NCBI GenBank assembly: GCA_049970935.1
Contig: JBMFLZ010000002.1
Coordinates: forward strand, 998-64,997
Direction: 5' to 3'
From: Sulfolobales archaeon
Lineage (GTDB): Archaea; Thermoproteota; Thermoprotei_A; Sulfolobales; AG1
Length of the DNA stretch: 64,000 nucleotides
Shown here: piece by piece, positions 6,185 through 54,974 of the stretch
Numbering within the stretch: position 1 is the stretch's first letter
Layout: each line of letters opens with the position of its first letter
Notes under the pieces: model-generated
The model's database searches: none
What the model was told of the DNA's origin: nothing
What the model saw: only the letters and a program-made list of their open reading frames with translations
Translations under genes and position numbers: made by a program

Positions 6185-7215
6185 TCCTTAGCGAGATAAT
6201 ATTCCGATGAATGCTCTCTATACAATCTTATGATCGGGGTCTCCGAGGCTTCAATGTTTAATTTCTCTGCTAACATTACTGATACTAAACCTGCGATAAA
6301 TGAACCTATCATTATCTTAGTGAGATAACCCTCTTTTTCCGGTAAATCGATTTCATTAACTACTATATTCTCGTATCTCTGGGATAGTTTCTTGAGGAAC
6401 CCCAGTAGCATCTGATTCTCAGCATCATCAGGATCAGAGATATAATAAACATATTTATAACCTCTTGGTAATGTCTCAACGTAGTTATGACCTGCCTCGG
6501 GTAGAATAGGTGTCTCTACATATAGCTTAGTATTCTCAGCAAATTCTGTTTTGAAGCGATCTATCAAAGGCGAATATCTATTATTGCTTGAAAACACAAT
6601 ATTGATTCTTTCATTACTTCTTATCTTCTCATATAGCTCATTTGCTATCTCATTGGAAAGATCTTTGTATTCATTCATGTACGATATTGTTCTCTCAAGA
6701 TCTCTGTAGAGCCTGTTTAGATCTATTTTTAGAAGCTCAATGAGCTTCATAACTCCCACAAGAAGCATTGGTAGTGAGGCTCTTGGAAGATATCCTTGAA
6801 AAACCTTGTAGTATGGAACAGATCTTTTTTTAGCTTCCTCGAGAAGTCTACCATTACTTGAGACAATTCCCACGTCGCAATTTCTCGAAAGAATTTTTTT
6901 GAGGAAACATAGAGTTTCTCCAGTATTTCCTGAGTAGCTTACAGCTATTGAGAGTGCTCTATCGCATTTAGATAGTAGATTAATAGGTGTCTCAGAAGAT
7001 CTGTTTGATAAAACTATTGGTTCCTTAAAGTTATATGTTTTGTCTCCAAAGATCCTTGCTACATACTCACCTACTATTCCTGAGCCTCCCATACCTGATA
7101 CATAAACAAGATCTTTATTACTGAAAAATTTTTTATTTACAACCTCTATATTAATTGATTCTCGAATCATTTTATCCCACGATAAATATGCTTGCTTAAG
7201 ACTCAAAAGCTTCAC
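6178..7215 (-). CDS. Bifunctional phosphoglucose/phosphomannose isomerase (SIS domain)
   Basis: SGMGGSGIVGEY and SYSGNTGET SIS motifs, with the two-SIS architecture of crenarchaeal PGI/PMI. Confidence 0.7.
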   Translation of the reverse strand: MKLLSLKQAYLSWDKMIRESINIEVVNKKFFSNKDLVYVSGMGGSGIVGEYVARIFGDKTYNFKEPIVLSNRSSETPINLLSKCDRALSIAVSYSGNTGETLCFLKKILSRNCDVGIVSSNGRLLEEAKKRSVPYYKVFQGYLPRASLPMLLVGVMKLIELLKIDLNRLYRDLERTISYMNEYKDLSNEIANELYEKIRSNERINIVFSSNNRYSPLIDRFKTEFAENTKLYVETPILPEAGHNYVETLPRGYKYVYYISDPDDAENQMLLGFLKKLSQRYENIVVNEIDLPEKEGYLTKIMIGSFIAGLVSVMLAEKLNIEASETPIIRLYREHSSEYYLAKEC

Positions 7216-7337
7216 CTACGGAATTCTTCATCTAGTAATTATTTGTATTTTGAAATATAATAATGATTAAAGTATAATAGGGATTATTCTAGATACATGA
7301 ATTTGGTGGCTGAGAAATAGATGTAGAAACTAAATTA

Positions 7338-8414
7338 ATGAAAATTAAAGAAGGAACCGAGGAAATTATTACTGAGGAAGAGCTTAGATTACTTCTTGAG
7401 ACAGGTGGTGGGAAAGGCTACTTAGGATTTGAGCCATCTGGTGTCTTCCATATTGGGTGGATTGTTTGGGCTCTTAAATTCAAGGATCTTATTGAAGCAG
7501 GTTTTAAAATGAAGCTTCTTTCAGCTACATGGCATGCCTGGATAAATGATAAGTTTGGTGGGGACATGGATCTAATTAGAAAAGCATCTGATCACATAGT
7601 AGAAGTATTGGATCTATTAGGCGTGAGAAAAGGAAGTTATGAACTTGTATATGCGGAGGATCTTGTTTCAGATAAAGATTACTGGGCTCTTCTACTCAGA
7701 GCCGCAAAATATACAACTCTGGCTAGAGCTAAGAGAGCTCTAACTATTATGGGTAGAAAAGCTGAGGAGGCTGAAACTGATTTCTCGAAATTAATTTATC
7801 CATTTATGCAGGTCACAGACATATTTTACATGGATCTTGATTTAGCTCTAGGAGGAATTGATCAGAGGAAAGCTCATATGCTAGCTAGAGAACTAGCAGA
7901 TAAGTTGAAAAGGAAGAAGATAGTTGCTATACATACACCACTAATTCCCTCTCTAAAGGGTCCTGAGGCAGGTAGAATGGAAACTTCTGCTATTCTTGAG
8001 ATAGATGAGAAATACTCATCCTCTAAAATGAGTAAATCTAAGCCAGAGACAGCGATTTTTGTCATCGATTCTCCAGAGGAGATCAGAAACAAGATCCGTA
8101 AGGCTTATTGTCCACCGAAAATAGTTGAAGAGAACCCAATTATCTCCATAGCCGAGAACATAATATTAAGAATTAAAAGATCTATGAAAATTGAGAGATC
8201 ATTAAAATATGGTGGGGATATAATTATTAAAAGTAGAGAAGAGCTAAGAAAAATATATTCAGAGGGGTCTCTGCACCCACTAGATCTTAAGGAAAACGTT
8301 GCGAGAGAATTAATAGAGATATTGAGCCCCATAAGAGAAGAGATGATTAGAAGAGGCAGTATAGATATAGCTAAATACTTAATGACTAGAGTATCTAGAT
8401 CCTTAGAGAAATAA
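7338..8414 (+). CDS. tyrS: Tyrosyl-tRNA synthetase
   Basis: Class I HIGH-type motif (GFEPSGVFHIGW) and KMSKS (SSKMSKSKP). Archaeal TyrRS size. Confidence 0.9.
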   Translation: MKIKEGTEEIITEEELRLLLETGGGKGYLGFEPSGVFHIGWIVWALKFKDLIEAGFKMKLLSATWHAWINDKFGGDMDLIRKASDHIVEVLDLLGVRKGSYELVYAEDLVSDKDYWALLLRAAKYTTLARAKRALTIMGRKAEEAETDFSKLIYPFMQVTDIFYMDLDLALGGIDQRKAHMLARELADKLKRKKIVAIHTPLIPSLKGPEAGRMETSAILEIDEKYSSSKMSKSKPETAIFVIDSPEEIRNKIRKAYCPPKIVEENPIISIAENIILRIKRSMKIERSLKYGGDIIIKSREELRKIYSEGSLHPLDLKENVARELIEILSPIREEMIRRGSIDIAKYLMTRVSRSLEK

Positions 8415-46996: not shown

Positions 46997-47728
46997 CTAT
47001 CTAGATAAAACTTCTTCTTCATATAAAGATTTCTTTCTATCATACTCCTCTCTAGACATAATAATTCTCGCAGGAACCCCTGCCACAACAGAGTTCTCGG
47101 GAACATCTCGTATCACGACAGCACCGGCTGCTACAACAGAGTTTCTTCCAATCTTGATACCAGCGACTATTGTACTATTTGCTCCAATAACTACATTATC
47201 CTCGACTAATGTCTCAATCAGTCTCCTACTGGGAGGATATCTATCATTCGTGAATACAGCTCTGGGTCCTATAAACACATTATTCCCAATAATAACTTTT
47301 GGGGGGATGTATACTCCTGATTGAATACTCACATTCTCTCCTATTACAACATCTCCATCAATTATTGTTCCTGTACCCACAATACTATTTCTCCCGATCT
47401 TTGTATTTTCTCTGATCAATACATTATGACCTATTCTCGTATTATCTCCTATGTGAACCTTTTCATAAATCACTGAATGAGATCTTATAATTACACCTGA
47501 GCCTATGTATGCTCCATCGCCGTACTCCACAAGATCTTTTTTTGAAATCAATTTCTCTTTCATATAGATCTCAATAGTTCCTCTGGTGGGGAAGCCTACT
47601 TCCACATAATCAAATATTAATACATTATCCTCAATAATACTTCTACCATAGATCTTTGAGGTAGGGGATACATAAGCACTCTTGATCATGGCACGAGATG
47701 ATATCACTTTGTTATCCCCAATCAACAT
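46997..47728 (-). CDS. Left-handed beta-helix (hexapeptide-repeat) acyl/acetyltransferase
   Basis: Repeated [LIV]-G-x-x-x-x hexapeptides throughout (IGDNTRIGHNVLI, IGRNSIVGTGTII, IGENVSIQSGVYI). Confidence 0.8.
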   Translation of the reverse strand: MLIGDNKVISSRAMIKSAYVSPTSKIYGRSIIEDNVLIFDYVEVGFPTRGTIEIYMKEKLISKKDLVEYGDGAYIGSGVIIRSHSVIYEKVHIGDNTRIGHNVLIRENTKIGRNSIVGTGTIIDGDVVIGENVSIQSGVYIPPKVIIGNNVFIGPRAVFTNDRYPPSRRLIETLVEDNVVIGANSTIVAGIKIGRNSVVAAGAVVIRDVPENSVVAGVPARIIMSREEYDRKKSLYEEEVLSR

Positions 47729-47749
47729 TTTATAAGCGTTTATTATATC

Positions 47750-48049
47750 TTGGGGATATACATGGAGTTGATAGAATTCGTTAGATACATAGCCCTTCAG
47801 ATAATGATGATTGGATGGATCATATTCTTAGTGACATGGATGATTGGATGGGTCCTCAGAGGAGCACCAATACCAATGACACGACTCAAGAAGACGGGGC
47901 ACTCTCTCATAGAAGATGCTGTGTGGGCAGCTTTCTGGCTGGCTATGGGTGGCACAGTATTTTCTCTTATTGTATACATAGTTAATACAATTGGTATGCC
48001 TATGCCACCACCACCCAGCAATGTAATTACACAATCAGCTTCTCCATAA
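47750..48049 (+). CDS. Small 2-TM membrane protein (paralogous to the N-terminus of the next gene)
   Basis: Two hydrophobic helices joined by RGAPIPMTRLKKTGHSLIEDA, with a Pro-rich tail PMPPPPS. The likely start is the ATG at 47762. Confidence 0.5.
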   Translation: MGIYMELIEFVRYIALQIMMIGWIIFLVTWMIGWVLRGAPIPMTRLKKTGHSLIEDAVWAAFWLAMGGTVFSLIVYIVNTIGMPMPPPPSNVITQSASP

Positions 48050-48099
48050 GGATCTAGCGAGATAACTTGTCAGTGACTAGATGATAAAGTGGCTAGATA

Positions 48100-49491
48100 A
48101 TGGAGATCAGTAATCTCTTAGAATTATCGTATTATCTAGCTTTTCTAAATTATGTCTTGGGAGCAGTTTTACTTGGCTCACCTCTACCATTTGCTTCTAT
48201 AAAGAGACTCGGCTATAATATGATGAAAGATTCTGTAGCAGGATTCGTTTTAGTCACCAGTTTTTACATAATTTTACAATTAATCAATTTTCTCAGAAGT
48301 TTAGTAGGTTCAAGCGCTAGCGATGTTGATTCTTGGTTCACAACTCAATTTATTACAATATCAGAGAAACTTGTATCATTAAAGCTTATATTAATAGCCT
48401 CTAATCCTGTGTTGAGAGCATTAATAGAGCCAATAATATCTGTTGCTGTATCGCTTCTGAGCACAGCTTTCACCAGTCTTTTTCTACTAAGAATAATTTA
48501 TAGTCTAGTTACGCAGAAAGGAGGTGTTCTGTTAGCCCTAGGAATACTTCTATATACGATACCACTAGGAATATTTAAGAGAGCAGGATCCCTACTAATA
48601 TCATTTGTAATAATATCAATGATCGCACTACCCGCAATACCAAATTTCGTGAATTTTCTCGCCTCAAATGTGGTTAACGCAAATACCTCATCAACCCAGA
48701 TACCGGGGCTGATTGCATATCCTTTGATAATAGTAAGAGATTTATCTGGAAATAATTTATCATATTCATACGCGAAATTTTATTTAGCAAGTGATCCTAG
48801 CAATATTATTGCTGCATATCCAGCCGATATAAGAGGTGTTATAGACTGTAAAACTCTGAATCATGGTTTGCCGGTAGAGAAAAATATTTTTGCGCATATT
48901 GAATTGTATGGTTGGTTATTTGAATCTAGCAACTCAATATATATAACACGAGATTGCTTGGAGAAACAATGCGTATTTTCGCTTAAGATATCTAGTATAA
49001 TGGTTTCTGATGCTCCTTACATAATTGTTCATACTCCTTACAGTATTGTTGCATATAATTACTCAAAACAAAATGTTGGGGATAACACTAGGCAAATAAT
49101 GATCTATGTGGTCACGTCTTCAAGTGATGATTTCTATGTGACATTCCCAGCGACAACAAAGATTCAGATGCTAGAAATAAATAGTGAAAATACCATTCAT
49201 AAAGTAATTGAGTGGTCATGGAATGGGGTATCAGGATACACATATGTATCTAAGTTGAATCCTGGGTTAAACAGGATCATTATACTCTATAACTTTACGG
49301 AGCCTCCTCAACCTATAAGTGAAATCATTCCATACACATCTAATAATACTGTTTCAGAAAATACTATGGAAAGTATCTTATCTGATGTTATATCTATTCT
49401 AATAATATCTACGTTTTTACCCTCTATATATGTCACACTTATACTCATGGCTACTAATGCGTTATCTAAGATCTTAAGCGCGAGAGGCTGA
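48100..49491 (+). CDS. Polytopic membrane protein with large extracytoplasmic beta-rich domain
   Basis: About 6 N-terminal TM helices, a ~220-aa domain rich in N-x-S/T sequons, and a C-terminal TM anchor. The first two helices plus loop (GSPLPFASIKRLGYNMMKDSV) mirror the upstream small protein. Confidence 0.6.
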   Translation: MEISNLLELSYYLAFLNYVLGAVLLGSPLPFASIKRLGYNMMKDSVAGFVLVTSFYIILQLINFLRSLVGSSASDVDSWFTTQFITISEKLVSLKLILIASNPVLRALIEPIISVAVSLLSTAFTSLFLLRIIYSLVTQKGGVLLALGILLYTIPLGIFKRAGSLLISFVIISMIALPAIPNFVNFLASNVVNANTSSTQIPGLIAYPLIIVRDLSGNNLSYSYAKFYLASDPSNIIAAYPADIRGVIDCKTLNHGLPVEKNIFAHIELYGWLFESSNSIYITRDCLEKQCVFSLKISSIMVSDAPYIIVHTPYSIVAYNYSKQNVGDNTRQIMIYVVTSSSDDFYVTFPATTKIQMLEINSENTIHKVIEWSWNGVSGYTYVSKLNPGLNRIIILYNFTEPPQPISEIIPYTSNNTVSENTMESILSDVISILIISTFLPSIYVTLILMATNALSKILSARG

Positions 49492-51443: not shown

Positions 51444-52535
51444 ATGATAGAGACAAAAATTATTAGAATAGATCCATTTAATATAAATAGAGATCTTTTG
51501 AAAGAAGCTAGTCTTATTATTCAGAAAGGGGGATTAGTAGCTTTCCCGACAGAAACTGTCTATGGATTAGGAGCAGATGTATTTAACACAGAGGCTTTGA
51601 AAAGGATCTTTGCAGTTAAAAGAAGACCTATGGATAATCCACTAATAATACATATATGCAGAAAAGAGGACGTGTATGAAGTCGCTGAAGAGGTTCCTAA
51701 AGAAGCCACTAAATTAATAGAGGAAATGTGGCCTGGTCCACTAACACTTATTCTCAGAAAATCAAAAGAGATTCCTTACGAAGCTACTGGAGGGCTGGAA
51801 ACAGTTGCTGTTAGAATGCCTGCTCATCCCGTAGCTCTAGAATTTATCTGTCTCTCAGACACATTTATCGCTGCACCAAGTGCAAATATCTCTGGCAGAC
51901 CTAGTCCTACAAAAGCTGAGCATGTGATCAGAGATTTCTATGGAATAATAGAAGCGATAATAGATTCTGGAGAGACACTCTTTGGGATAGAGTCTACGAT
52001 ACTTAATGTCTTAACAGATCCTCCCACACTACTTCGCCCAGGTGCGTATCCCGTGGAACTAATTATGGAGATATTAAGAAGAGAGATCTCTATACCACCA
52101 TTCGCTAAAGGATTTGGAGAGGCTGATATAGCTCTAGCGCCAGGGACAAAATATAGACACTACGCACCTAATACACCTCTCATACTTATTGAATCCTCTA
52201 ATTACTCAATGTTTAACTTAGATAAAATAGTTAATGAGATCTTCAGTAGAGTAATTAATGATCTCAAGAGCAATAAGAGAGTAGCTGTTATAGCATCACG
52301 AGAAACTATCAATAAATATCGCAACTTATTAGAGAACTACGAAAATGTGATTATTATTGATATTGGGTCTAGAAGTAATCTATACGAGATAGCTAAAAGA
52401 ATCTTTGATACCTTTAGAAGACTCGATGACCTAGGTGTAGATATAGCTTATATAGAAGGTTTTGAAGAGAGAGGTATAGGCTTATCTATTATGAATCGAA
52501 TACGTAAGGCTGCTACTCAGAAAATCAGGATCTAG
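51444..52535 (+). CDS. sua5: L-threonylcarbamoyladenylate synthase (Sua5/YrdC + Sua5 domain)
   Basis: GGLVAFPTETVYGLGAD, KRRPMDNPLIIH, SANISGRPSPT, and a C-terminal Sua5 domain. Confidence 0.9.
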   Translation: MIETKIIRIDPFNINRDLLKEASLIIQKGGLVAFPTETVYGLGADVFNTEALKRIFAVKRRPMDNPLIIHICRKEDVYEVAEEVPKEATKLIEEMWPGPLTLILRKSKEIPYEATGGLETVAVRMPAHPVALEFICLSDTFIAAPSANISGRPSPTKAEHVIRDFYGIIEAIIDSGETLFGIESTILNVLTDPPTLLRPGAYPVELIMEILRREISIPPFAKGFGEADIALAPGTKYRHYAPNTPLILIESSNYSMFNLDKIVNEIFSRVINDLKSNKRVAVIASRETINKYRNLLENYENVIIIDIGSRSNLYEIAKRIFDTFRRLDDLGVDIAYIEGFEERGIGLSIMNRIRKAATQKIRI

Positions 52536-54058
52536 CTAGATTCTTGAAAACCAGATCTTTTTATGTCTCTTGTTTTTAACCACTCGTCTACAGGATCAAT
52601 ATCTACACCAGATATTTTCTCGGATACATGATCTATCTTAACAACTGCTGGGATCCGGATCCAGTGCCCTAGCAAAATAGCCTCGCCTATGTTGAGACTC
52701 GGTAGCTGATCTATGATCTCCTCAGTCATATACTCGGATACATGTGAGATAAATGCTTGATCCTCTGGTTGAATAATTCTCATAATAGCCCAAGAGCCTA
52801 TCTGGCTCATAATATCAGGATCTAATCCTCTGGGTCTCTGAGAAACAATACCTACTCCTACACCAAATTTTCTTCCTTCTCTAACTATTGTTTCAACGCG
52901 ATATTTACTTAATGTATCTTTCTCTGAAGGAATATATATGTGCGCTTCCTCGAGAAAAATCATTATAGGATGTATAAGACCTCTATCTATTCTCGAGCTA
53001 CTTTTCTTCAGCCATGTTACACGTTTTCTCTCTTCTAATATTCTATAGAGCCAGTGTGATACTAAAGCATCTATCTGTGATAATGTTAATCCCGTAAGAT
53101 CTACTACATTAAGTCTTGATAACTCAATTTGATCTATTACATCCCTGGCATTATCATATAAAAGATTCTTTAGAAAAATCTTGTTACTCTCAACAAGATC
53201 TATTACTGCTTGGGCAGCATCTCTCATCTCGCTTCTACTAGTTTTAATACTTTCACTCTTAACACAGTTAATAAAATGCTCTAAGAAAGATTTTTCTTTC
53301 TCTAAGTCAACTTTATTCTTACAAACCCTCACTATCAACTCTTGATTCTTTGCACCCGCTCTCACACCTATTATTCGTGCGAATTCTTGCCAAGTTAAGG
53401 ATCTCGGGTTAAGTTTAGCGTCGATCACCGTGGGATATTCTCCATCTATTCTCAGATCCTTATACTCACCGTGGTAATCAAATATTACGACTGTTCCTCC
53501 TCTCTTAACAATCTCTTTACTCAATAAGGCAACCATATTGCTTTTTCCCATACCGGTCATTGCGATGATCGCTAGATGTCTCTGAACTATTCTATTAAGA
53601 TCTATTTTAACCTCTACATCAGGATTTCTAAGCAGTACTCCAATTCTGCACCATCTATAATCGGCTGGAGAAAAGATCTTAGATAATGTTGCTGAGGAGG
53701 CTCTATAAACCTCTGTGCCAGGTGGTGGTGCTACTGGGGGCATCCTCAGGCTCTCTACTTCACCTAGTATCCTGAAGAATCCTTTGTAATATATGGATCT
53801 ACTATCCACTTTCAGTATATTAGCTACTTTGCCGAGATCTGTTGCCGAAATATTTTCATCGATGATTAATGATCCTGCAACACTACTCTGGACCAAACCA
53901 ATTACGTGATATCGATCATATTTCAACTCTATGTACTCTCCCAACATTGGTGGTTTAAGCGCTAGGAACACTCCTCCGTGAGGTTTGCTCTCCCCAATTA
54001 CGTAGCCTAATAATTCTTCTTCATTTCTAATTTTCCTAGGGGCTCCTAAAGAACTCAT
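52532..54058 (-). CDS. herA: HerA-like hexameric ATPase/helicase
   Basis: N-terminal HAS-barrel-like GYVIGES..., RHLAIIAMTGMGKSN (Walker A), IVIFDYHGEY, IMIFLEEAHIYIP (Walker B) and VSQRP. Directly downstream of nurA. Confidence 0.8.
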   Translation of the reverse strand: MSSLGAPRKIRNEEELLGYVIGESKPHGGVFLALKPPMLGEYIELKYDRYHVIGLVQSSVAGSLIIDENISATDLGKVANILKVDSRSIYYKGFFRILGEVESLRMPPVAPPPGTEVYRASSATLSKIFSPADYRWCRIGVLLRNPDVEVKIDLNRIVQRHLAIIAMTGMGKSNMVALLSKEIVKRGGTVVIFDYHGEYKDLRIDGEYPTVIDAKLNPRSLTWQEFARIIGVRAGAKNQELIVRVCKNKVDLEKEKSFLEHFINCVKSESIKTSRSEMRDAAQAVIDLVESNKIFLKNLLYDNARDVIDQIELSRLNVVDLTGLTLSQIDALVSHWLYRILEERKRVTWLKKSSSRIDRGLIHPIMIFLEEAHIYIPSEKDTLSKYRVETIVREGRKFGVGVGIVSQRPRGLDPDIMSQIGSWAIMRIIQPEDQAFISHVSEYMTEEIIDQLPSLNIGEAILLGHWIRIPAVVKIDHVSEKISGVDIDPVDEWLKTRDIKRSGFQESS

Positions 54059-54062
54059 ATAG

Positions 54063-54974
54063 TCACCTAAGCTTTATTTTGTTTCTTAGATCAGCTATAT
54101 CTAGTAGATTAAATATCTTCATAATGTCTTCGTCAGAGATCCTAACCAATTTATCTATTAATGATAAAATTATTGGGTACCCGTTATGACTCATACTGTA
54201 TAGAATATCTAAAATTTTTCTCAGATAATCCATATCGCCACTCTCCTTTAAATACTCTATTCTTAAAATAGGTTTCTTAGCCTCTAATCTAATATAGGCT
54301 ATACTGATCTTAAACTCTACCCCTAGAAACTCTATATTAAATGTGGAATGCTTCGCAAAACCTATTTCTGATGTATACTCCTCTAAGAGATATATATCTG
54401 GTTTATTATAAAAGCCACCTACAACATTTCTCATGAGATCCTGTGATCCGCTATTCTTAGCTATGAAAATTATCTTTGATAGATCCTTGTTAGATAAAGT
54501 ATCTACTATATCTTTTAATTGCCTTGATAATTTTATGTCTGGTTTCTCTCTCAGATATTTATTGATTGAATAGATCTTTTTAATAAATGATCCATCGACG
54601 AGAATCAGTTTATTATTAAGATCTATTGTTTCCTTAAGAACTTCAAACTCGGATCTTATAGATCTTATGTCTAGGAAATCCTTAGGATCATCTGTTAGAT
54701 CTCTGATATCGATCTCAGCATACTCATATTTATTTGAGCATGTATCTATGTAGCCAGCATTTAAAACATATAGGTAATACCCTCTTAATTCAACCCAATT
54801 ATAACCACTATCTATAGATCCAATACATCCTGGATCAGAAATTATTTGTGGTTTATACCTAATCCAGATTTCCTGGAGTTTCTCTAATACCTCTAGTGGA
54901 GGAGCCTCGTAGAGAGTATTTAGAATCTTATTTTTAGCACTGTATATAATATCAAAGGTTTTTATAAGCATCAC
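54063..54974 (-). CDS. nurA: NurA-domain nuclease
   Basis: CIGSIDSGY and KLILVDGSF resemble the two Asp-containing NurA motifs. RNase-H-like size. Coupled to herA with a 4-nt gap. Confidence 0.65.
   Translation of the reverse strand: MMLIKTFDIIYSAKNKILNTLYEAPPLEVLEKLQEIWIRYKPQIISDPGCIGSIDSGYNWVELRGYYLYVLNAGYIDTCSNKYEYAEIDIRDLTDDPKDFLDIRSIRSEFEVLKETIDLNNKLILVDGSFIKKIYSINKYLREKPDIKLSRQLKDIVDTLSNKDLSKIIFIAKNSGSQDLMRNVVGGFYNKPDIYLLEEYTSEIGFAKHSTFNIEFLGVEFKISIAYIRLEAKKPILRIEYLKESGDMDYLRKILDILYSMSHNGYPIILSLIDKLVRISDEDIMKIFNLLDIADLRNKIKLR

Follow-up and report, generated by a model that had tools for sequence, protein, structure and literature searches.

What do a small two-helix protein and the large polytopic membrane protein encoded directly behind it do in an uncultured archaeon? 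This question is raised by a locus within a 64-kb stretch of archaeal DNA, in the following called the window. The initial annotation proposed that the two genes might be a pilin/platform pair of the Ced (cedA1–cedA) or VirB2/VirB6 type, and it kept an uncharacterised envelope module as the alternative. The alternative was rejected, as both proteins match Ced families, and we assign a probability of about 0.88 to the reading that the pair represents cedA1–cedA of the known Ced DNA-import system, here carried by an uncultured hot-spring archaeon of the Desulfurococcales/Sulfolobales radiation. The Ced system, its ancestry in type IV secretion systems (T4SS), and the paralogy of CedA1 and CedA have all been published already, and the locus mainly shows that Ced can be recognised from sequence alone.

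Open reading frames and upstream region

Both open reading frames were found exactly where they had initially been called, at 47750-48049 (+ strand) and at 48100-49491 (+ strand, 463 aa). The length of 99 aa that had been given for the small protein, which follows from the mechanical call of a TTG start at 47750, is probably too long, because this TTG lies within a conserved non-coding promoter box and a TAG stop is present there in three relatives. The ATG at 47762 is preferred for the same reasons, and cedA1 thus probably spans 47762..48049 (+) and encodes 95 aa. Aligning the sequence 5' of cedA1 from nine related genomes revealed a conserved TATA-box-like element, ACATTTTATAAG, at 47725..47736 (+), about 30 nt 5' of the cedA1 ATG, and, 3' of it, a conserved GGGG box at 47752-47755. 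Spacing and conservation suggest a promoter role for the ACATTTTATAAG element, and this single conserved promoter would lie upstream of the whole pair, in which 50 nt separate cedA1 from cedA. Both open reading frames are real genes and are under strong purifying selection, with dN/dS values of 0.02 for cedA1 (vs relative L003) and 0.077 for cedA, at a dS of ~1.

The small protein and the CedA1 pilin family

The small protein scored 112.1 bits (E 9.9e-33) with the curated CedA1 equivalog model (NCBIfam NF041797, Ced_CedA1), which has a cut-off of 100 bits, and the match spans model positions 1-75 of 75. In a phmmer comparison with the Ced pilus subunit of Aeropyrum pernix (PDB 8DFU), residues 6-80 aligned with residues 3-77 of the 84-aa chain (E 9.9e-23). 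Pfam PF27251 'CedA1', a family that takes in both CedA1 and CedA, is recorded in precomputed annotations on orthologs of both window proteins, and a Pfam-A release older than PF27251 gave no match for either protein. Hydropathy analysis placed hydrophobic segments at residues 3-35 and 53-78, with the basic loop RGAPIPMTRLKKTGH between them, and a Pro-rich tail forms the C-terminus. A cleavable signal peptide is absent, as the alignment begins at residue 2 of the 95-aa form, facing residue 3 of the A. pernix pilin, which is unprocessed. Judged by the family and structure matches, the PF27251 annotation of its orthologs, and its dN/dS, the small gene is a bona fide CedA1 gene, encoding a VirB2-like Ced pilin.

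The large protein and its relation to CedA1

For the 463-aa protein (48100..49491, +), the top family was CedA (NCBIfam NF041796), with 95.8 bits and a match of protein residues 2-205 to model positions 3-209 of 259, a score below the equivalog cut-off of 330 bits. The CedA of an Aeropyrum sp. likewise remained under this cut-off, with only 107.9 bits, which suggests that the cut-off fits Sulfolobaceae-type CedA and, therefore, that the long-form branch—called CedA in the literature—lies wholly outside of it. When aligned with the short CedAs of Sulfolobaceae by hhalign, the first ~190 residues gave a probability of 99.85% and an E of 1e-30 over 185 columns, at 33% identity, and a profile of the CedA branch of the window matched P0095, whose NCBI cluster name is 'DNA import protein CedA [Saccharolobus sp.]', at E 5.6e-19. 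In BLASTP comparisons with APE_0220 of A. pernix K1 (452 aa), the N-domain aligned at 34% identity (E 4e-21), and a second, collinear alignment covered the C-terminal part including TM7 (E 1e-6). A search for relatives gave 183 proteins, most of which are 445-515 aa long and align from end to end. By these alignments and its dN/dS, the gene is a collinear ortholog of the A. pernix CedA APE_0220, i.e., a long-form cedA that encodes a VirB6-like polytopic membrane protein. The Ced homology, which had been a guess at first, is now shown by the CedA1 model score, the match to 8DFU, the collinearity with APE_0220, and the similarity to Saccharolobus CedA.

The architecture originally described for the large protein, with about six N-terminal transmembrane (TM) helices, an all-beta domain of ~215 aa, and a C-terminal TM helix, was reproduced by AF2 models and hydropathy. 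Seven hydrophobic helices with a positive-inside charge pattern were found, and the predicted topology has seven TM helices, with the N-terminus outside and the C-terminus inside. The CedA1-like hairpin TM1-TM2, delimited by BLASTP and profile comparisons, covers residues 1-70 (48100..48309, +). It is followed by TM3-TM6 at residues 71-190 (48310..48669, +; AF2 helices, hydropathy and charge), with the invariant residues P155 and G163 in the loop PLGIFKRAG. TM7, at residues 422-463 (49363..49488, +; AF2 helix 422-460), carries a P-x-x-Y motif and continues into a basic cytoplasmic tail, and Y444 is near-invariant; these columns, like those of P155 and G163, were taken from a 48-sequence CedA alignment. 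TM7 resembles the final TM helix of short CedA weakly but collinearly (hhalign E 0.0028, hmmsearch 0.005-0.07). An internal duplication within CedA, with the loop 153-167 as counterpart of the CedA1-like loop, was considered and discarded, as the hhalign E of 0.02-0.05 is not significant.

That the small protein recurs as the N-terminus of the large one was confirmed at several levels. Pairwise BLASTP gave 27% identity over 63 aa (E 5e-8), the NCBIfam CedA1 model matched CedA residues 5-52 (E 1.6e-7), and the CedA model in turn matched the small protein (E 1.1e-7). The similarity persisted in alignments with orthologs: a profile of 58 CedA1 orthologs and one of 56 CedA orthologs aligned in hhalign with a probability of 97.1% and an E of 6e-11, pairing CedA1 residues 13-81 with CedA residues 5-73. 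Furthermore, a 48-sequence CedA profile searched against the whole PDB had one match only, the CedA1 pilin 8DFU (E 1.6e-11). The CedA1-like N-terminus of CedA has already been described (Beltran et al., 2023; PMC9905601). Spurious low-complexity matches are common for hydrophobic helices, and this, together with the missing match to the older Pfam-A release, could be taken to mean that an unrelated small hydrophobic ORF and a membrane protein resemble each other, and Ced, by TM composition and chance. The E values of 1e-22 to 1e-33 to the curated or structurally solved CedA1 and the profile–profile E of 6e-11 between the two families refute this idea, whose probability we consider negligible; moreover, the conserved polar loop G-x-P-x-P...K-[KR]-x-G...D is not compositional, and the PF27251 'CedA1' annotation is found on the orthologs of both proteins.

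The beta-rich insert of long CedA

Between TM6 and TM7, the domain model and hhalign delimit a conserved all-beta insert, predicted to be extracellular, at CedA residues 203-415 (213 aa; 48706..49344, +), and in the hhalign comparison with short CedA the domain behaves as an insertion. It is modelled with a pLDDT of 94.9 and a pTM of 0.88, probably as two stacked beta-sandwiches, contains the invariant residues C286, C291, W372, and W374, and has a dN/dS of 0.092. The initial impression that it is full of N-x-S/T sequons could not be upheld: the whole protein has five, and the 3 sequons of the beta domain compare with 2.5 +/- 1.4 after shuffling of the 213-aa sequence (p = 0.47). Foldseek searches with the domain against PDB and BFVD gave weak matches, the best being the BcpA pilin (E 5.5e-4, TM 0.34-0.36), followed by SlaB and phage tail proteins; a family assignment on this basis was rejected, as these are generic tandem beta-sandwich resemblances only and no close structural neighbour was among them. 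Long CedA with the beta insert occurs in nearly all sampled non-Sulfolobaceae lineages, A. pernix included, and the insert is absent from Sulfolobaceae CedA; the long form appears to be the normal CedA outside the Sulfolobaceae. No discussion of the insert was found in the Ced literature examined (PMC9905601, PMC11823120, PMC11868833).

Gene order and genomic context

A survey of 65 related loci covered Desulfurococcaceae, Acidilobaceae, Pyrodictiaceae, and Aeropyrum and relatives. A cedA of 450-528 aa directly follows cedA1 in 63 of the 65 loci with a complete cedA (offset -79 to +45 nt), and a CedB-like ATPase is encoded next after cedA in 45 of the 65. In the clade of the window, cedB is not adjacent, and profile searches found neither CedB nor CedD within the 64-kb window. 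Two wider searches for cedB say nothing on its absence: a profile search of the protein database listed at least 50 CedB-like proteins, and none of those listed could be assigned to the sister MAGs; the matches listed in a Walker-A pattern scan of the genome collection were mostly bacterial P-loop ATPases. The initial statement that no VirB4/CedB-type ATPase is adjacent holds for CedB; a HerA-like ATPase (52532-54058) is encoded 3 kb downstream, together with a NurA-like partner. This HerA-like ATPase was rejected as a CedB substitute in view of its HAS barrel, its full-length HerA match, its NurA-like partner, and its 36 bits on the CedB-like profile; in the relative L001, it is encoded away from the ced pair. 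As an argument against Ced, the absence of an adjacent ATPase carries no weight, since cedB (saci_0748) is also unlinked from cedA (saci_0568) in S. acidocaldarius (PMC11823120), and the locus survey showed the same for Ignisphaera loci.

The position of cedB also bears on a reading in which the pair, of the CedA family, has undergone functional drift, either to a pilus for adhesion or structure only or to participation in DNA export as by Saccharolobus CedE, in a clade without a dedicated CedB. Besides the non-adjacent cedB, which follows cedA in so many related loci, and the lack of CedB within the window, the contribution of CedE and CedA1 to export in Sa. islandicus (PMC11868833) and the 62.3 bits that the 463-aa protein scored with the CedE model speak for such a drift. 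However, the CedA model scored higher (95.8 bits), CedE is described as Saccharolobus-specific (PMC11868833), the pair is orthologous and collinear with that of A. pernix, and an unlinked cedB is normal in S. acidocaldarius and in Ignisphaera loci. The pair is also the sole Ced-family locus of the window, in which no further Ced-family genes, including CedA2 and a CedE paralog, were found. We therefore regard a drifted role as improbable, and a Ced DNA-import pair remains our preferred reading.

The genes that flank the pair encode a hexapeptide transferase, an amino-acid kinase, an AsnC-type protein, and TiaS, and their order is retained in relatives whose CedA is only 51% identical. With these housekeeping neighbours conserved at such a distance, and with neither tRNA genes nor flanking direct repeats found around the pair, the context is, by its gene content, chromosomal and vertically inherited. 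An integrated conjugative plasmid or other mobile element, carrying a classical export-type archaeal conjugation apparatus and not a chromosomal Ced system, could account for the homology of Ced components to T4SS parts (PMC9905601) and for the dip in GC content, which is 0.322 over 48-50 kb vs ~0.36 around. The conserved flanks and the missing tRNA gene and repeats contradict it, however, and no other transfer gene was present among the ORFs tested, dS of ~1 and dN/dS of 0.02-0.08 are as for vertically inherited core genes, and the low GC fits an Ile/Asn/Ser-rich membrane protein, so that we consider a mobile element very improbable.

Discussion

How would a Ced pair of this kind work? Our model draws on the published Ced mechanism (PMC9905601, PMC11823120, PMC11868833), and pilus formation, expression, and the direction of DNA transfer in the lineage of the window would follow published Ced by analogy. 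CedA1 would insert into the membrane unprocessed, with its basic loop in the cytoplasm, and would then be extracted and polymerised together with membrane lipids into a thin pilus of the conjugative type, the lumen of which would have room for single-stranded DNA only. CedA would form a platform and channel of the VirB6 type at the base of the pilus, with its pilin-like first hairpin probably serving as dock or template for the first layer of pilins. Both assembly and the uptake of DNA would be driven by CedB, a VirB4-like ATPase that would be encoded elsewhere in the genome, and the cell would use the DNA taken up for recombinational repair.

With respect to the beta domain, we can only speculate on a role. 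Located between TM6 and TM7, it would project outside the membrane around the pilus exit, where it may form a collar, span the S-layer, or mediate contact. We tentatively propose, with more doubt than confidence, that it represents an undescribed functional part of a conjugation-like machine, either a pilus-exit collar or stalk through the pseudo-periplasm and S-layer, or a cell-contact module. If so, the insert would take the place of components absent from archaea (VirB5 or the outer-membrane core complex, for example), and its loss in Sulfolobaceae would accompany their reliance on Ups pili, CedA2, and CedE to contact partner cells. How archaea without Ups pili build a DNA-transfer junction could be asked with this confidently modelled extracellular domain as a target.

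Three observations were counted against the Ced identity: CedB and CedD were not found in the window, CedA scored under its equivalog cut-off, and the link to VirB6 was not reproduced by HMMER and Foldseek.

The survey of the 65 loci indicates that operons in the sampled non-Sulfolobaceae lineages commonly read cedA1–cedA(long)–cedB, and that the arrangement of the model organisms is the exception. Both genes of the pair are annotated as 'hypothetical protein' in all related MAGs examined and in A. pernix K1. The entire long-form branch escapes the curated CedA model, and Ced is therefore annotated less often than it should be by pipelines applied outside the Sulfolobaceae.

Comparison with known systems

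Ced is a domesticated type-IV-secretion-like apparatus and can be compared with bacterial conjugative T4SS (VirB2/TraA pilin, VirB6/TrwI platform, VirB4 ATPase). In both, a small helix-loop-helix pilin gene lies beside the gene of a polytopic platform with a pilin-like N-terminus; in bacteria, the relationship of VirB2 and VirB6 was found with an HHsearch probability of 66.6% (Beltran et al., PMC9905601), and lipid-containing pili have been described (PMC9905601). Ced is reported to import and not to export DNA, and it has no outer-membrane core complex, VirB5 adhesin, or relaxase, its genes being chromosomal and domesticated. The link of CedA to VirB6 comes from literature HHsearch, via TedA (PMC9905601). 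When PDB sequences were searched by HMMER with the CedA profile, the CedA1 pilin was the sole match, with none to VirB6/TrwI, and the best 50 matches listed by Foldseek for the full-length CedA model against the PDB contained weak beta-sandwich matches and no VirB6 fold. CedA may thus be said to work like VirB6 and is not a demonstrated member of the VirB6 family.

The Ted system of Thermoproteales (TedC pilin, TedA channel, TedB ATPase) has the same layout, a pilin followed by a channel with seven TM helices, and is related to Ced at the profile–profile level only (PMC9905601). TedC is described as a pilin that has a cleavable Sec signal peptide and whose sequence is not recognisably similar to that of CedA1. 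Unlike TedC, the window pilin has no N-terminal extension before helix 1 and is of the CedA1 type.

With the Sulfolobaceae Ced system (S. acidocaldarius CedA, CedA1, CedA2, and CedB; Sa. islandicus CedD and CedE), the window shares the CedA1 family, the equivalog cut-off of which is passed, a homologous CedA TM core of ~185 residues, and, in the case of S. acidocaldarius, the lack of a cedB beside cedA. Sulfolobaceae CedA has ~260 aa, with a loop of ~40 residues where the window CedA has its ~215-aa beta domain, and the CedA2/CedE paralogs of Sulfolobaceae have no counterpart near the window pair. Only for Ced of Sulfolobaceae, to our knowledge, have induction by UV and a requirement for Ups pili been reported.

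The Ced locus of A. pernix, with CedA1 (APE_0220a), for which 8DFU is the cryo-EM pilus structure, and CedA (APE_0220), has the gene order of the window. In an Aeropyrum sp. MAG, cedB is located directly 3' of cedA, which is not so in the window, and the window CedA1 ends in an additional Pro-rich tail, MPMPPPPSNVITQSASP, that has no counterpart in the A. pernix pilin. The middle of the beta domain has diverged too far between the two CedAs for BLASTP. The two pilins are 45% identical over residues 6-80 (MAFFT), and both are without a signal peptide; the two CedAs share the same long architecture (452 vs 463 aa), a TM core at 34% identity, and, in collinear positions, the W-x-W-x-G motif and TM7.

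CedA1 and its paralogy to CedA

The small ORF at 47750–48049 on the forward strand is, judged by its sequence, cedA1. On the curated CedA1 equivalog of NCBIfam its product reaches 112.1 bits (cut-off 100), and residues 6–80 align with the PDB 8DFU chain (E 1e-22). Beltran et al. (2023, PMC9905601) identified this chain as APE_0220a, the CedA1 pilin of Aeropyrum pernix, a VirB2-like protein that enters its lipid-containing pilus unprocessed. Both proteins lack a signal peptide. The initial annotation had given the gene product 99 aa; the ORF coordinates hold for a reading from TTG 47750, but the start is likely ATG 47762, resulting in a protein of 95 aa, since the TTG falls inside a conserved non-coding box in which three relatives carry a TAG stop. 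Across nine genomes, the region before cedA1 (47725–47761) contains a conserved GGGG box and, about 30 nt upstream of the ATG, the strongly conserved element ACATTTTATAAG. At ATG 47728 of the divergent hexapeptide-transferase gene, relatives carry ...GAGATCAT; the transferase start probably lies further in, so that the two genes may share a very compact promoter region. Within cedA1, a 16-nt direct repeat (47806–47821 and 47839–47854, 94% identical) encodes MIGWI and MIGWV, a small internal sequence repeat in helix 1. The Pro-rich CedA1 tail (coded at 47983–48046) is lineage-specific: among 58 orthologs, tails are absent or short in Acidilobaceae and Aeropyrum, PxPPPP in the window's clade, PQPPxPQLP in Ignisphaera, and carry N-x-T sites in Pyrodictiaceae and the AG1 clade (orthologs in loci L009–L068 from related genomes). 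They may represent a variable surface decoration of the pilus.

The proposed resemblance of the small protein to the N-terminus of its large neighbor is beyond chance (BLASTP, 27% identity over 63 aa, E 5e-8) and persists when orthologs are included (hhalign of a 58-ortholog against a 56-ortholog profile, 97.1%, E 6e-11). Each of the two proteins is also hit by the NCBIfam model of the other (CedA1, CedA) at about 1e-7, and a 48-sequence profile of the large protein's family has the A. pernix Ced pilin as its sole PDB match (E 1.6e-11). This paralogy was already published in 2023 (Beltran et al., PMC9905601), and Pfam PF27251 incorporates it, orthologs of both proteins being annotated with this family. 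A cytoplasmic CedA loop, P155-LGIFKRAG-163 (residues 154–163, window 48559–48588), in which P155 and G163 do not vary among 48 sequences, resembles the pilin-like loop P28-LPFASIKRLG-38, but the internal hairpin repeat at which this likeness hints was rejected, as hhalign gave no significant match (E 0.02–0.05).

A long form of CedA with a predicted extracellular beta domain

The second gene (48100–49491, same strand, 463 aa) is assigned to CedA of a "long" type. CedA is its best curated family (95.8 bits over residues 2–205), with CedE, a Saccharolobus paralog, second at 62.3 bits; neither score reaches its cut-off. Because the CedA of an Aeropyrum sp. MAG also receives only 107.9 bits, the low CedA score reflects the model itself. 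When 1.84 billion representatives were searched exhaustively with a profile, 183 relatives were retrieved, most of them 445–515 aa long and matching along the whole length. A minority of 246–299 aa, including a Candidatus Aramenus protein and a cluster named "DNA import protein CedA [Saccharolobus sp.]" by NCBI, matches only the N-terminal ~190–220 residues. The two families align over residues 2–188 (hhalign, 99.85%, E 1e-30), and their last transmembrane helices give a weak but collinear match (429–462 vs 229–263, E 0.0028), which argues that the beta domain is an insertion in the loop that joins TM6 and TM7, the last one on the extracellular side.

Structure models and hydropathy agree with the architecture described initially, namely about six N-terminal transmembrane helices, an all-beta domain and a C-terminal helix. 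Modeled alone (residues 203–415, nine sequences), the domain is all-beta with pLDDT 94.9 and pTM 0.88, and the close family invariably has C286, C291, W372 and W374. The loop charges fit a seven-helix topology with the N-terminus outside and the C-terminus inside, and the domain is thus predicted to be extracellular. The description "full of N-x-S/T sequons" is not supported, as the whole of CedA has five, and the three in the domain compare with 2.5 ± 1.4 expected by shuffling (p = 0.47). Foldseek found no convincing structural neighbor; its best PDB match is the tandem Ig-like domains of the BcpA pilin (E 5.5e-4, TM 0.34–0.36), followed by S-layer SlaB and phage tail proteins.

Against an 85%-identical ortholog in MAG KM4324-28 (dS ~1), dN/dS is 0.02 for cedA1 and 0.077 for cedA, and within cedA the pilin-like hairpin has 0.027, TM7 0.023 and the beta domain 0.092, values that indicate that both genes, insert included, are functional. 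As the insert is the fastest-evolving part of cedA, the close-family profile recovers it from just 34 of the 63 long forms.

Genomic context and linkage to cedB

Sixty loci were gathered with CedA1 as anchor, from MAGs labelled Desulfurococcales/Desulfurococcaceae, Acidilobaceae, Pyrodictiaceae (including Pyrodictium and Hyperthermus), Ignisphaera, Caldisphaera, Thermodiscus and Aeropyrum; a second scan, anchored on CedB, contributed nine more among the matches listed (Staphylothermus, Thermogladius, Thermosphaera, Ignicoccus). In 63 of the 65 loci with a complete cedA, CedA has 450–528 aa and starts −79 to +45 nt after cedA1; the two others have a form of ~281 aa. These two, L061 (6284–7129, "Thermoproteota archaeon") and L066 (6280–7128, "uncultured Desulfurococcaceae archaeon"), are not labelled Sulfolobaceae, and their short CedA follows a Pro-tailed CedA1; that of L061, the one scanned, matches the CedE model along its full length (113.6 bits). 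Such exceptions may indicate where loss or gain of the insert took place.

A P-loop ATPase directly follows cedA in 45 of the 65 loci, with CedB as best curated match. When complete, these proteins (L017–L077) have 413–608 aa, usually with a GPTGxGKT Walker A motif, and all score far under the NCBIfam CedB cut-off (39–177 bits vs 700); public annotations of relatives read "DUF87", "HerA-like", "FtsK/SpoIIIE" or even "EcfA2". An adjacent cedB is missing in Ignisphaera and in the window's own clade (relatives of 37–99% CedA identity). The initial statement that no VirB4/CedB-type ATPase is adjacent holds for CedB, and the 64-kb window contains no CedB-like gene. A HerA-like ATPase does lie 3 kb from the ced genes. 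This protein (508 aa, HAS barrel + DUF87, 372 bits on HerA_Thermprot vs a cut-off of 800) is encoded on the reverse strand (52532–54974 with its partner), just after a NurA-like gene (303 aa, 80 bits vs 400). With its HAS barrel, full-length match to HerA and NurA-like partner, and a score of only 36 bits on the CedB-like profile, it was rejected as a CedB substitute, and the two look like a paralogous or diverged HerA–NurA pair without mre11/rad50. The HerA-like gene stays near the ced genes in the related loci L003 and L004, and nothing HerA-like lies within 10 kb of them in L001, the EvPrim.Bin15 relative. Ted loci, the Thermoproteales counterpart, reportedly include HerA-like genes.

A mobile origin of the ced pair was also considered. 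GC content is about 0.36 around the pair and falls to 0.32 over 48–50 kb. The divergent upstream genes (hexapeptide-repeat transferase, amino-acid kinase) and the convergent downstream genes (AsnC-type ligand-binding protein, TiaS) are housekeeping genes that remain syntenic in the window's clade down to 51% CedA identity. ARAGORN found no tRNA gene in 1–64000 (intron-containing archaeal tRNAs might escape it), no flanking repeats were found around the pair, no other transfer gene was found among the ORFs tested, and the window contains no second Ced-family gene. The pair is therefore chromosomal, and the mobile-element reading was rejected. In L001, a 639-aa ORF (6270–8189, forward strand) without Pfam or NCBIfam match lies between an HD-domain gene and the amino-acid kinase gene; it is missing from the syntenic position of the window.

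Discussion

The suspected pilin/platform pair of the cedA1–cedA type is borne out by homology to the A. pernix pilin/channel pair, the curated CedA1 score and the CedA transmembrane core, and the locus adds an unannotated member to the known Ced system. In this system, CedA1 assembles with lipids into a pilus of the conjugative type, with room in its lumen for ssDNA only, CedA acts as a VirB6-like channel or platform, assembly and import are powered by CedB and, in Sulfolobaceae, CedD, and recombinational repair uses the imported DNA (PMC9905601, PMC11823120, PMC11868833). VirB6 likeness of the large protein was not recovered by HMMER against the PDB or among the best 50 Foldseek matches listed. 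The pilin-like first hairpin of CedA probably docks or templates the first pilin layer, and the insert may serve as a collar or contact module where the pilus leaves the cell. We found no mention of the beta domain in the Ced literature covered (the supplement of Beltran et al., 2023, included, the original 2016 paper outside its scope); that it represents an undescribed functional part of the Ced machine is a tentative idea, which we regard as rather unlikely.

The closest comparison is A. pernix K1, where APE_0220 adjoins the gene of the solved pilin. With 452 aa it is collinear with the window CedA, in the N-domain (34% identity, E 4e-21) and over the W-x-W-x-G motif and TM7 (E 1e-6). The analysis shows orthology of the two pairs, the hairpin common to CedA1 and CedA, a conserved operon structure and purifying selection. 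The advance over the published Ced literature covered is modest, and it consists of three points: outside the Sulfolobaceae, CedA is usually long and carries the beta domain; the curated CedA model does not capture this long form; and the cedA–cedB operon linkage varies by clade.
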